Of a DNA stretch of 9,060 nucleotides, positions 4,802 to 9,060 are shown in pieces. The stretch is taken from IMG/VR virus record IMGVR_UViG_2663763232_000002, positions 1 through 9,060 of that record. One strand, given 5' to 3'. This DNA comes from a virus (lineage: Duplodnaviria > Heunggongvirae > Uroviricota > Caudoviricetes). The position numbers and the translations under genes are program-made. Under the pieces are notes generated by a model. The model saw only the letters and a list, made by a program, of their open reading frames with translations, did not search any database and was not told the DNA's origin. Every line of letters starts with the position of its first letter. The first letter of the stretch is position 1.

Positions 4802-5343
4802 GCCGCCCTCCTGACGCCCTGCCCGATCGCCATCAATGCCACTTTGGATACGGTAGTAAACATCCGTCGAGGACTGATGAACGGTCGCCAAATCAGCAGC
4901 ATGGAGCCTTTGCTGTTTCCCTTTTTCTCCAGCCCTGTCGATGGTTCGATAAAATTAATCCGTCCATCAGTGATAATACGAACTTCGTCAACACTCTCCA
5001 GAGCCTTGCTGAACCATCCGACTGACATATCCTCTGGCACAAGCATCACTACCGTCTGTCGCTGTTGTATGCACTGCTCAGCGGCTTTTTCCACCCACGG
5101 CCTGATATTGCTGTACGGTGGGTTATTCCAGATTGCACCGTGGCTTATCCACTCAGAATTGAGCGCGTTGTCAGCCTCAGTTAGCCAGTGAGCGCACAGA
5201 GCATTTTTGTCGCTCGCTGCCGAATCCAGCCAGAATCCAAACTCAATATCCAGTGCATCAAAAAGCCAGAGCGGCGTTTGCCAGCAGTCCTTGTCGTGTG
5301 CTGGCGTATTTGATTTGATAGTCATGCAGCCCGATCTCCCCAT
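4798..5343 (-). CDS. Phage DNA N6-adenine methyltransferase (Dam-like, orphan)
   Basis: '[28 protein letters not shown].......L...W....[17 protein letters not shown].......Q.VVMLVP' carries the NPPY catalytic motif IV and matches the phage Dam (PF05869-type) pattern. No cognate restriction gene is adjacent. An alternative ATG at 5325 overlaps the HNH stop as ATGA and may be the true start. Confidence 0.85.
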
Positions 5344-5924
5344 CTCGCTTTCATTTTTTCATTTGCAAATCGCCAGAATCTTCCTTTGTGATATGAGCTT
5401 TCGCCATTACAGCAACGACTAATTGACGAACTATCAAATCCTTCTCTGACAGCATCCATAGCTGCTTCATAATAAACCTCCTCCCCAGTTTTCATGTCAG
5501 TAGAAATAACAGCTTTACTGGCAGGATGGTCACCACTAAATTTACCTAGCGATATAGGTATTCTTCCATTTTGTTTATATCCGTGTTTTGAGTTTTCAGA
5601 ATGTGATACCCATTCAAGGTTATCAGCCCTATTGTCATCTCTTCGCCCATTTTTGTGATTAACTACCAAGCCATCACAGAACCCTGTACAGAATGCTTTC
5701 GCAACTATCCTGTGGGCGCTGTATTTCTTACCGTATACCTTTATTTGAAGATATCCTGTCGACTTGCACTTGAATGGTTTTACACTAGTGCCATTAATTA
5801 TTTTCTTATATGGCCTCTGTCTGGTTGATGTTACTGTAACTTCCCTCGTAATAGACCTAAAATTTCCTTTATTGCTAACCTGATAAAATGGAATCCCTTC
5901 GATATCTACCCAAACCTCAATCAT
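5322..5924 (-). CDS. Free-standing HNH homing endonuclease (NUMOD4 + HNH_3-type)
   Basis: N-terminal NUMOD4-like 'EVWVDIEGIPFYQVSNKGNFRSI'; HNH core 'H-KNG-RRD-DN-RAD-NL-EWVSHSE-N-SK-H'; C-terminal 'F.S...AA...G.....IS.CC.G...S..G..WRF', typical of phage HNH endonuclease DNA-binding tails. GGAGG Shine-Dalgarno before the ATG at 5924. The gene body is markedly AT-rich. Confidence 0.85.
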   Translation of the reverse strand: MIEVWVDIEGIPFYQVSNKGNFRSITREVTVTSTRQRPYKKIINGTSVKPFKCKSTGYLQIKVYGKKYSAHRIVAKAFCTGFCDGLVVNHKNGRRDDNRADNLEWVSHSENSKHGYKQNGRIPISLGKFSGDHPASKAVISTDMKTGEEVYYEAAMDAVREGFDSSSISRCCNGESSYHKGRFWRFANEKMKARWGDRAA

Positions 5925-6611: not shown

Positions 6612-8492
6612 TTAATACTCCGTCACGTTTTCCTGTCGCCACGCCTCGTCATATTCCGATTTCGGCATATTGGCGATGTAGCTATAAGGCGATCCTGATT
6701 CAAGTTGCAGGAACTGGTGCGATTGCTCGTCAAGGAACAAAGGGACGCCACCTTCCCAACCTTCGCCGTTACGTTGCTTTTCAAGCATCAAAACAGATGC
6801 CGGAGATGCCAGTAGCTGTTCGTCCTTCTCTGACATCTTTTCACCACTCTGAACTCTCTGTAACGCTCTCTCGCGAGCCTTGTTACGCCAGATGATGAAA
6901 AGGTTGTCTGTCAGGTCTGTTATCGCTCCAGAGCCTTTTACGTCCATTTTCCCGGTTGGTTTTTCTTCGCTGTCACCTTTTCGCGAGTGAGTAACGAGAA
7001 TGACGTGGGAGTTTGTTTTGTTTTTGAAATCGCAAATCGAGTCAACAAACGCCTTCTGCCCGTTATAGTCATCGTCGCCTATGCCACATTTCATTAGGCT
7101 GTCGATGATGAATAACTGGATCCCGTATCGGCGGCGAGCGTAGTCGAATATTTCGATCAGCCTGTCGGCTTTCGCCGTTCCGGTCAGACCAAACACCCAA
7201 AGTCTTTCGTCATAAAATTTAAATGCAGAGTCAATTTCCAGCACTGGCGGCATCTTGCAGCACGTCGCCTGACGGGTAAGGCGCTTAAGGAGAATACCAG
7301 GCTTCAGCTCAAGTGACGCGATGCACGTCTTCACACCCTGACGCATTGCCTCAAGTGCCATATGCCCGACAACCTCCGTTTTTCCGTGACCGTTCACACC
7401 ATTGACCAGCGTCAACTCGGCCTCACGGAACTGGAATTTATCTGCCAGAGATTCCCACGGTGGATTAAACAGATACTGCTGCTTGCCGTAGAAAGCGTTG
7501 ATAGTGTCCTGGTAAAACTCTCGCGCGCTGTAGAGTTCTTCAGGATCGAAGTAGGATGCCGTGCCGATGTACTGCCAGATTTCATCCTCGGTAACACCGT
7601 TCATCAGGCATTCGTTGATGTCTTTGTACGGCAGAGTAACAAGACGGCAACGATGTTCACCGAGTCGGCTTGCGATTTCCCTTGCGGCTTCACGACCAAC
7701 ATCATCAACGTCCATCGAGATGAATATTTCCTCAAACCTGTCGAGGTTGTGATACTCAAACTCAATCCACTGTTGCTTAGCGCCTTTCCCGCCACCAAAC
7801 GGCACGGATAACGCCGAGATGCCGTATTGCGCATAGCTCATACAATCAATTTCGCCTTCGCAAAGTACAACCGCCCTCACGCCAGCGTCCAGAGCCTGCC
7901 ATCCGAACAGACAAGGTTCGCAATCACCTTCTGCCATAATGACTTTCTTCCCGTCCGGGCGCTCAGTGCTGATTCGCTTGACCTGCAACAACTCACCATC
8001 GCGTTTGTACGGAATCACCAGAGCATCCAGTTCTCGCTCTCCATTCCACACCTTGCCGCTGACAACCTCGTAGCGCTTTACGACTTCTGGCGATATGCCA
8101 CGCGATTGCAGGTACTCAAGATGGGATTCTGTTCTGGTAACGTAGCGGGCGATTTTCTTGCGATCAGGTCTGGAGAATTTCTTCTCACGTTTGGCATCGA
8201 AATGGTGATCGTCATCCTTGATACCGAGAAATGCTTTCGCTTCCTGCATAGCCTGATGCAGGTTAATTCCTCGACATGCCATCCACAAATCAAGCATGTC
8301 ACCGCCGTCCCCCTCAGCGAAATCAGCCCATTTTTTCTTGCCGCTAAGGTTGACCTTAAGGCTGTTTCCCTTGTCACCGTTGACGTTACCGGCAACCCAC
8401 TCATGCCCCTCTTTCTTGCCGTTTGGCAACAGGTGCGGAGCCACCCTGTCAACCTGCGCCCAAAGCAGGTCGCTAAGTTCACTTGGCGTCAT
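6612..8492 (-). CDS. Bifunctional DNA primase-helicase, T7 gp4-like (degenerate zinc-binding-like domain, TOPRIM primase, DnaB-family helicase)
   Basis: TOPRIM motifs 'VVLCEGEIDCMS' and 'ISMDVDDVGREAA', and 'LPYKDINECLMNG' (T7 gp4 has 'LPCKDANECHLNG'). Helicase Walker A 'NGVNGHGKT', Walker B 'LFIIDSL', and 'VKGSGAITDLTDNLFIIWRN' (T7 has '[20 protein letters not shown]'). GAGGGA Shine-Dalgarno before the ATG at 8492. Confidence 0.9.
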   Translation of the reverse strand: MTPSELSDLLWAQVDRVAPHLLPNGKKEGHEWVAGNVNGDKGNSLKVNLSGKKKWADFAEGDGGDMLDLWMACRGINLHQAMQEAKAFLGIKDDDHHFDAKREKKFSRPDRKKIARYVTRTESHLEYLQSRGISPEVVKRYEVVSGKVWNGERELDALVIPYKRDGELLQVKRISTERPDGKKVIMAEGDCEPCLFGWQALDAGVRAVVLCEGEIDCMSYAQYGISALSVPFGGGKGAKQQWIEFEYHNLDRFEEIFISMDVDDVGREAAREIASRLGEHRCRLVTLPYKDINECLMNGVTEDEIWQYIGTASYFDPEELYSAREFYQDTINAFYGKQQYLFNPPWESLADKFQFREAELTLVNGVNGHGKTEVVGHMALEAMRQGVKTCIASLELKPGILLKRLTRQATCCKMPPVLEIDSAFKFYDERLWVFGLTGTAKADRLIEIFDYARRRYGIQLFIIDSLMKCGIGDDDYNGQKAFVDSICDFKNKTNSHVILVTHSRKGDSEEKPTGKMDVKGSGAITDLTDNLFIIWRNKARERALQRVQSGEKMSEKDEQLLASPASVLMLEKQRNGEGWEGGVPLFLDEQSHQFLQLESGSPYSYIANMPKSEYDEAWRQENVTEY

Positions 8493-8542
8493 GATTCCCT
8501 CAGATTGAGATTTTTAAACCAGAAATCGACAAACGAAATACT

Positions 8543-8558
8543 TAACCAGCCGTGGTTA
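8543..8558. promoter_or_regulatory. Inverted repeat TAACCA-GCCG-TGGTTA in the intergenic region upstream of the primase-helicase
   Basis: Six-bp arms that are exact reverse complements, separated by 4 bp, about 50 nt upstream of the primase-helicase start. Flanked by three AACCAG direct repeats (8517, 8544, 8560). Candidate operator or hairpin; no functional evidence. Confidence 0.25.
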
Positions 8559-8599
8559 TAACCAGCGACCAGTAGCGATTTGATTTTTGATTTCATGGT

Positions 8600-8974
8600 T
8601 CACCTGTCGAAAAACACGTAGCCAGTTTTCGATACGGTGATTGCGGATGATGGTTTGGATTGTGGTTGAATAGTTTCTGGCTTCTCGTCGTTCCAGCGTT
8701 GACCGTTCAGGTAGCTCGATGGTAACAACCTGTCGAATCCGAACTGCTTACCATTCCTGCATGCGATGTCTTCTGCCAGCATCGTGGCAAACTCGCTTGC
8801 CGTACCCCTGGTAGTTTTACGCCATTCCCTGAACTGTGTTCTGAATGCCGAAGCTGCGTTTTTCTTCCCGGCTTTCCGCATGCCTGCACACCAGAATATT
8901 TCCTCGAATGCCTTGTCGGTTTCTTCGTGACGGTCAGGAGTTTTTTCACACTCTGTTCGGACATGTTCGAACAT
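8600..8974 (-). CDS. Hypothetical replication-module protein (initiator-like?), probably 5'-truncated by the window edge
   Basis: The 124-aa ORF from ATG 8974 has no Shine-Dalgarno, and the same frame stays open upstream to the window end at 9060, so the real start is likely outside the window. Located immediately upstream of the primase-helicase. No family recognised. Confidence 0.5.
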   Translation of the reverse strand: MFEHVRTECEKTPDRHEETDKAFEEIFWCAGMRKAGKKNAASAFRTQFREWRKTTRGTASEFATMLAEDIACRNGKQFGFDRLLPSSYLNGQRWNDEKPETIQPQSKPSSAITVSKTGYVFFDR

Positions 8975-9021
8975 AATGTTTTTAGGTTCATTGACTGGTT
9001 CAAAAGAGTGATAGGTTCTGG

Positions 9022-9060
9022 GGGCAGCTCCTGCCCCACCCCCTAGGGCAGCTCCTGCCC
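9022..9060. repeat. Tandem palindromic iteron-like repeats (candidate replication origin or operator array), truncated by the window end
   Basis: The 15-bp unit GGGCAGCTCCTGCCC (arms GGGCAG/CTGCCC, 3-bp centre) occurs at 9022-9036 and 9046-9060 with a 24-bp period. The window ends inside the array. Confidence 0.5.

Follow-up and report, generated by a model that had tools for sequence, protein, structure and literature searches.

Do the short repeats on which this viral DNA ends mark a replication origin, and does that origin lie inside the gene for its own initiator? The window, by which we mean the whole 9,060-nt stretch analysed here, carries two exact copies of the 15-mer GGGCAGCTCCTGCCC at its edge (9022-9036 and 9046-9060), 24 bp apart from start to start. 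We read them as origin iterons of a lambdoid temperate phage or prophage, located in the stretch that encodes the Gly/Ala linker of an O-like initiator, and estimate from sequence comparison a probability of about 85% that this reading is right. Iterons within an initiator gene are a well-known arrangement, and the version found here has apparently not been described before. In the searchable literature we found neither an experiment on binding or origin activity of this iteron type nor a paper containing the iteron string, the only matches being unrelated primers.

On the plus strand, the sequence runs ...GGTTCTGGGGGCAGCTCCTGCCCCACCCCCTAGGGCAGCTCCTGCCC to the final base of the window. The distal copy ends with that base, and the array is thus cut by the window end, as the initial annotation had recognised. 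Allowing up to three mismatches on both strands, GGGCAGCTCCTGCCC has four matches in the window, compared to 0.23 expected (none of 200 shuffles reached four), and it is the sole close direct repeat of at least 14 nt within the whole 9 kb; no further repeat cluster is present, and an Rfam search matched no family. The 15-mer had been presented as a perfect palindrome recurring in two exact copies with a 24-bp period. The copies and the period stand, but the palindrome is interrupted (GGGCAG-CTC-CTGCCC, with 6-bp arms and a 3-bp centre), and the reverse complement differs at three positions. At the proximal copy the symmetry widens to a 7-3-7 dyad, GGGGCAG-CTC-CTGCCCC. The window accordingly holds what characterises a lambda-type array, namely at least two dyad-symmetric direct repeats of ~18-24 bp spaced by about two helical turns, here with the dyad GGGGCAG-nnn-CTGCCCC. 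The coordinates of all features of the region are collected in Table 1.

Table 1. Features of the proposed origin, the initiator gene and the neighbouring genes in the window. Strand is given as − for minus and as a dot where none applies.
Feature	Position	Strand	Remarks
Primase-helicase, 626 aa, presumed partner of the initiator C-domain	6612-8492	−	Toprim_2 + AAA_25/DnaB_C; PHROG
35-aa ORF MKSKIKSLLVAGYNHGWLSISFVDFWFKNLNLRES between initiator and primase-helicase	8489-8596	−	33 of 35 residues identical to ES18 gp60
3' part of O-like initiator gene (linker and C-terminal partner domain)	8600-9060	−	Open frame; stop codon 8600-8602; 5' part beyond the window
7-4-7 dyad GTTCGAA-CATG-TCCGAAC (gene strand), holding most of the 12-bp palindrome	8955-8972	.	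Part of the C-terminal module
Short A+T-rich spacer TAAAAACATTA, junction of N-domain/origin and C-terminal module	8975-8984	−	Lowest-GC part of the region
35-bp nucleotide-conserved element AGAACCTATCACTCTTTTGAACCAGTCAATGAACC	8985-9019	−	Single-codon use; exact matches beside iteron arrays
Iteron copy 1 (proximal to the 35-bp element)	9021-9037	−	7-3-7 dyad GGGGCAG-GAG-CTGCCCC
Iteron copy 2 (distal, cut by the window end)	9046-9060	−	Exact copy; gene-strand core GGGCAGGAGCTGCCC

All long open reading frames of the window lie on the minus strand. The frame of the ORF called at 8600-8974 is open from its stop codon through the repeats to the edge (AGAALGGGAGAAPRTYHSFEPVNEPKNIMFEH...), which agrees with the initial annotation. 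The ATG at 8974 lies within a perfect 12-bp palindrome and lacks a Shine-Dalgarno sequence (upstream sequence CCTAAAAACATT), two peculiarities that had been pointed out before; the true start in full-length homologues has GGAG 7 nt upstream. As these homologues continue the frame upstream, the ATG at 8974 is an internal Met codon.

The missing 5' part is known from relatives. Positions 8400-9060 match 39 phage records and 304 complete E. coli genomes. Prophages that are 99.4-99.9% identical here (E. coli E2348/69, 99.4%; 160-11H1, 99.9%) extend the frame upstream, as does phi24B (94.6% identical), and all run into a 98-aa winged-helix domain; neither the stop codon nor the separate upstream gene that had been considered at the outset lies just beyond the edge. 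In E2348/69 and 160-11H1, the gene is annotated as “helix-turn-helix domain-containing protein” (258 and 296 aa, respectively), and in phi24B as “O” (258 aa). It immediately follows cro and cII and precedes a gene for a “toprim domain-containing protein”. The full initiator consists of the N-terminal 98 aa (Pfam HTH_36, PF13730, 5e-14 in the E2348/69 homologue), a Gly/Ala linker of repeated GGAGAA(R/L)G units that is encoded by the iterons, and a C-terminal domain of 139 aa without a Pfam match. PHROGs assigns it to “replication initiation O-like” families; a sequence search of PDB chains with the initiator gave no match. Both the window frame and the full-length homologues therefore place the repeats inside the initiator coding sequence, between the DNA-binding and the partner-binding domain.

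Counted in relatives, the array has two to eight copies, most commonly spaced by 21 and 24 bp; E2348/69 contains three copies and 160-11H1 eight, with both periods. Across the family, conservation is highest in the proximal iteron. It is separated from the next copy by a spacer that in related loci is nearly always GGGGGT or CCCCCT in any iteron class (in the window, 9038-9045).

The gene context is that of an ordinary lambdoid early-right and late region, comprising the initiator, the primase-helicase, NinB, an HNH endonuclease, a methyltransferase and RusA, together with Q, endolysin, Rz and Rha. The initial annotation had called the neighbour of the initiator a gp4-like helicase, and the protein indeed combines a Toprim domain (Toprim_2, residues 209-296) with a following SF4 helicase domain of the DnaB/RecA-like type (AAA_25/DnaB_C, residues 355-594) in one polypeptide (PHROG 239 “DNA primase/helicase”, 1.6e-171). 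It goes together with the C-terminal half of the initiator: all 33 loci whose C-domain is of the type found in phage ES18 have it as the following gene, and no locus with another class of C-domain does. At least five unrelated C-domains, among them a lambda-O-C-like one and Phg_2220_C, occur in combination with the module of N-domain and iterons, and the neighbours of family members include a DnaB-like helicase (ZF40), a P-like loader (RothD, S1249) and a “replisome organizer” (PseuP_222).

An array that is translated in frame could also be nothing but a coding tandem repeat, that is a flexible Gly/Ala linker expanded by slippage, with no cis role of the DNA. The low complexity of the GGAGAA(L/R)G linker fits this explanation, and copy number differs between near-identical prophages (3, 8 and at least 6), as slippage predicts. 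We therefore examined whether it is the peptide or the DNA that is conserved in the family. Viral contigs were scanned with the iteron 16-mer, retaining arrays of at least two copies with up to two mismatches. All 64 arrays thus obtained from phage and IMG/VR loci lie in an open frame. Where the part preceding the array is long enough for comparison (58 cases), it falls into a single N-domain cluster in all but one, which makes 57. Some 190 related loci across Gammaproteobacteria carry such an array at the same position. Phages of Pectobacterium, Klebsiella, Pseudomonas, Vibrio, Shigella, Aggregatibacter and E. coli have homologues of the N-domain at 47-73% identity. Such diverged homologues (ZF40, RothD, PseuP_222, Vibrio D173 and D290, SfV, S1249 and mEp044), as well as those in 69 species genomes, contain three to six dyad-symmetric repeats of 21-24 bp at this position, with other sequences (for example TATGCCAnnnnTGGCA, GTGCAGGAGCTGCAC, GTGACAnnnTGTCAC and GTATGCCAGCAGATAGCAC). 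The linker peptides that they encode are unrelated to each other (GGAGAA, PMPSDGT, GSAGDS, SDKMSPP, GVVTQSH). What all diverged homologues have kept is thus the dyad symmetry and the period of the DNA, while the peptides are wholly different, which speaks against a coding repeat.

The repeat sequence also co-varies with the predicted recognition helix of the N-domain, which likewise counts against a coding repeat. Helices of the type xRS(T/S)VKxH(I/V)R occur with GGGGCAGnnnCTGCCC, SK(S/T)AVRNHID pairs with the iteron TATGCCAnnnnTGGCA, and KRTAMR with GTGACAnnnGTCAC. Over 118 distinct combinations of N-domain and proximal repeat, iteron and helix show a partial rank correlation of 0.46 given the rest of the domain, compared to 0.27 for iteron and the rest of the domain given the helix; shared ancestry confounds the co-variation and inflates both values, and it is the contrast between them, controlled against the rest of the domain, that is informative. 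Since, in addition, a lambda-type origin is annotated at the homologous place in ES18 (see below), we consider a purely coding repeat improbable and retain the origin reading. The dozens of helix-iteron pairs on one scaffold represent a natural data set from which the code of DNA recognition by HTH_36 initiators could be read.

In every family member, the proximal iteron is immediately followed on its 3' side by a 35-bp element (consensus AGAACCAGTCACTCTTYTGAACCAGTCAWNGAACC) composed of direct repeats of GAACCAGTCA, the first of which reads AACCTATCA in the window. It includes the stretch RTYHSFEPVNEP. Codon use was compared in 20 representatives with N-domain identities below 90%; the loci had been gathered via the iteron or the protein and not via the element. 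Each of 11 element codons is represented by one codon only (third-position identity 0.86), whereas 44 conserved amino-acid columns of the N-domain in the same 20 representatives use 3.3 codons on average (third-position identity 0.41). Some amino acids of the element do vary (F/S/L; N/K/I/T), without synonymous changes. In genomes sampled at one per species, the exact 26-nt element pattern was found at 69 places, which adjoin a dyad-repeat array wherever the upstream sequence suffices and of which 58 have a recognisable N-domain motif in the same frame. The hosts comprise Pseudomonas, Xenorhabdus, Photorhabdus, Shewanella, Providencia, Proteus, Pantoea, Erwinia, Photobacterium, Microbulbifer, a Cardiobacteriaceae MAG and others. 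Temperate phages of Escherichia, Pseudomonas, Vibrio, Shewanella, Xenorhabdus, Aggregatibacter and others have the element in common, whatever their iteron specificity or helicase system (primase-helicase, DnaB-type or P-type loader). Searches of the literature for the element sequence returned unrelated primer matches only.

The element coincides with a step in base composition. Over 192 distinct contexts, GC content falls from ~67% in the iterons (99th percentile of the locus) to ~40% over the element, and the 45 bp 3' of the iterons have a mean of 40% GC (median 9th percentile; 4th percentile in GC-rich hosts). In the window, the 40 bp at 8966-9005 have 30% GC, which is the 1.6th percentile of the window. 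Where the initial annotation had asked for an A+T-rich unwinding region, the iterons thus have a lower-GC flank; with 30-40% GC it is only moderately A+T-rich, in contrast to the long A+T tract of lambda, a point that counts against the origin reading. Given the GC step and an element that shows no synonymous changes, selection acts on the DNA as such (or on the RNA). The element is most economically interpreted as the probable site of unwinding or loading within the origin; a role at the RNA level is possible too. Its invariance makes it a candidate for a shared origin-opening site. In plasmid DNA unwinding elements, short direct repeats are recognised as single strands by Rep proteins, a possible parallel for the GAACCAGTCA repeats. 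To a more specific proposal we give even odds, namely that the element is a sequence-specific origin core serving as an unwinding site or as an entry site for helicase or primer, which is read as DNA, perhaps single-stranded, by either a conserved segment of the initiator or a host factor shared among Gammaproteobacteria, and which doubles as the recombination joint between the origin/N-domain module and the partner-binding module.

The arrangement can be compared point by point with that of lambda, where oriλ consists of four ~19-bp iterons in gene O followed by an A+T-rich region, the O N-domain binding the DNA and the O C-domain binding P. The window shares with oriλ the dyad-symmetric direct repeats about two turns apart in the initiator gene, between its two domains (PMC7466680). 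It further shares a lower-GC stretch 3' of the repeats, in the direction of pR transcription, and the operon order of cro, cII, initiator, helicase function, nin region, Q and lysis genes. In contrast to lambda, the iterons, which are unrelated in sequence, are G+C-rich and specify a Gly/Ala linker; they are flanked by a sequence-invariant 35-bp element, where lambda has a long A+T tract; and a phage primase-helicase takes the place of the DnaB loader P as the partner. The N-domain differs as well. It is of the HTH_36 type and lies outside the lambda-O Pfam family (PF04492, Phage_rep_O), a second point against the origin reading: the E2348/69 homologue matches PF13730 and not PF04492, whereas lambda O and ES18 gp59 as positive controls match PF04492 at ~1e-35. 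An hhalign comparison of the N-domain alignment with the lambda O N-terminus gave a probability of 10% and no signal. Distant homology is possible, as HHpred reportedly connects PF13730 with the N-terminus of lambda O (PMC5509034).

Other phages provide further parallels. The origins of lambda, P22 and L have iterons inside gene O or gene 18 (PMC8022706, PMC7466680). Like the locus described here, the gene 18 origins of P22 and L contain initiator-specific iterons inside the initiator gene, with one repeat per specificity (PMC8022706); they differ from it, as do iteron plasmids (e.g. RK2 with its 13-mers), in protein families and repeat sequences.

ES18 and its relatives combine both architectures. 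In ES18 (also in epsilon34, Sf101 and mEp043), the C-domain, the gp60-like ORF and the primase-helicase are 91-98% identical to the window at the DNA level, and the homology with these chimeras stops sharply at window position 8984. Upstream of this point, ES18 gp59 has a lambda-O N-domain (PF04492) and lambda-type iterons, whereas the window has another N-domain, other iterons and the element. Within the initiator gene of ES18, the position that corresponds to the window repeats is annotated in the record as “rep_origin, similar to lambda ori”; the upstream part of Sf101 contains a lambda-O N-domain and lambda-type repeats at the equivalent place, and in epsilon34 the same C-domain is fused to a lambda-O N-domain (PMC2629481). 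From the arrays, the helix co-variation and the ES18-type swap, which go together, we conclude that N-domain and repeats form one exchangeable specificity module, as they do in lambda, P22 and L (PMC8022706). The 8984/8985 boundary is a mosaic junction at which many phages and E. coli prophages, among them ES18, Sf101, mEp043 and epsilon34, switch to the lambda-O-type N-domain and origin, and the invariant element may act as the recombination joint there. In ES18, the homologue of the primase-helicase carries the annotation “similar to phage T7 gene 4”, so that the combination of a gp4-like primase-helicase and an O-like initiator is not new.

Together with the near-identical prophages and the ~190 loci, the origin annotated in ES18 gives computational support to the lambda-like arrangement that had been proposed from the window alone. 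The same applies to the idea of a lambdoid-style origin coupled to a T7-style replisome, given the iteron-bearing initiator and its Toprim and SF4-helicase neighbour. If the mechanism parallels that of lambda O at oriλ, N-domain dimers would bind the dyad-symmetric iterons and assemble an O-some-like complex; with iterons 21 or 24 bp apart, which is about two helical turns, the dimers would lie on one face of the DNA. This complex would then destabilise the lower-GC DNA of the element and of the adjacent spacer, and the C-domain would recruit the phage gp4-like primase-helicase in the way that the lambda O C-domain recruits P-DnaB. If so, loading of host DnaB and priming by DnaG would not be needed. 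Also to be set against the origin reading is that the window itself holds only two iteron copies and that the N-terminal half of the initiator is known from relatives only.

The sites might instead be bound by the initiator or another regulator in a purely regulatory role (autorepression, roadblock, handcuffing or copy control), the origin being located elsewhere. Dyad sites of HTH dimers are indeed typical of operators too, and plasmid iterons double as copy-control sites. The array, however, is embedded deep within a coding sequence rather than placed at a promoter; a search for promoter-like sites in it was negative, and phi24B has its true operators OR1-3 annotated ~1 kb further upstream. 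On these grounds we reject the operator array that the initial annotation had offered as the alternative. The lack of any other repeat cluster in the window and the conserved lower-GC element, which flanks the array as at origins, also argue against a regulatory role with the origin elsewhere, to which we assign the same small chance as to the coding repeat. Chance, an artefact or a dispersed REP-like host repeat family can be dismissed as next to impossible: the window and many public contigs do end within the repeat, and assembly trouble is thus real, but the matches in the window exceed the number expected from shuffles, the array is present in complete genomes and phage records, and every array of at least two copies that we found sits inside such an O-like initiator gene rather than belonging to an intergenic family of the host.

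The origin reading would have consequences beyond this phage, as it would place the origin of a replication module that is common among E. coli and Salmonella prophages. The module includes the “Eru5” Stx phages (phi24B, Min27, Stx2a_F403), in which replication is linked to toxin production. Eru5 has been defined by an HTH_36 protein followed by a primase (PMC8951638). This order is found here after cI-cro-cII, and the Eru5 representative Stx2a_F403 (AP012529.1) matches 100% of 8400-9060 with 94.6% DNA identity. For Eru5 phages, the searchable literature lists genes alone: the Eru papers classify genes and do not mention repeats or an origin, and the phi24B record has genes annotated O and P with the rep_origin feature absent. 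The reading does not overturn the current understanding but extends the lambda paradigm.

Several further observations concern the array and its surroundings. The GenBank record of the Klebsiella phage phiKp_30 is linearised within the array, of which it holds at least six copies, and has the truncated 375-nt ORF that the window also shows annotated as a gene. Public contigs as well as this “complete” phage record end inside the array (six other loci were noted), and such records list the truncated 124-aa ORF as a gene. The array disrupts assemblies, possibly the reason why the window ends where it does; an origin array would account for such breaks in assembly and annotation.

The 12-bp palindrome ATGTTCGAACAT at 8963-8974 is perfect, with 0.04 expected by chance. 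The 7-4-7 dyad that holds most of it (Table 1) is perfect in phiKp_30 (GTTCGAA-CACG-TTCGAAC) and in ES18 (GTCCGAA-AGTG-TTCGGAC), and the comparison of these two dyads gives a hint of compensatory change, based on few variants. The palindrome was also considered as a part of the origin/N-domain module and rejected, as it travels with the ES18-type C-terminal module and not with the iterons. The dyad and the T-run that follows it look like a weak terminator on the plus strand, antisense to the gene, with a score within chance expectation.

Downstream of the initiator, the 35-aa ORF overlaps the start of the primase-helicase gene. The primase-helicase itself occurs in a 626-aa and a 968-aa form (seen at five loci), the latter corresponding to “P” of phi24B. 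As the two forms are ~99% identical only over the first 372 aa, the helicase half is mosaic in its own right. Within the nin region, the HNH endonuclease gene (5322-5924, minus strand) has a GC content of 0.37-0.40, compared to ~0.49 in its surroundings; it is absent from some otherwise similar prophages and hence probably a mobile insertion.
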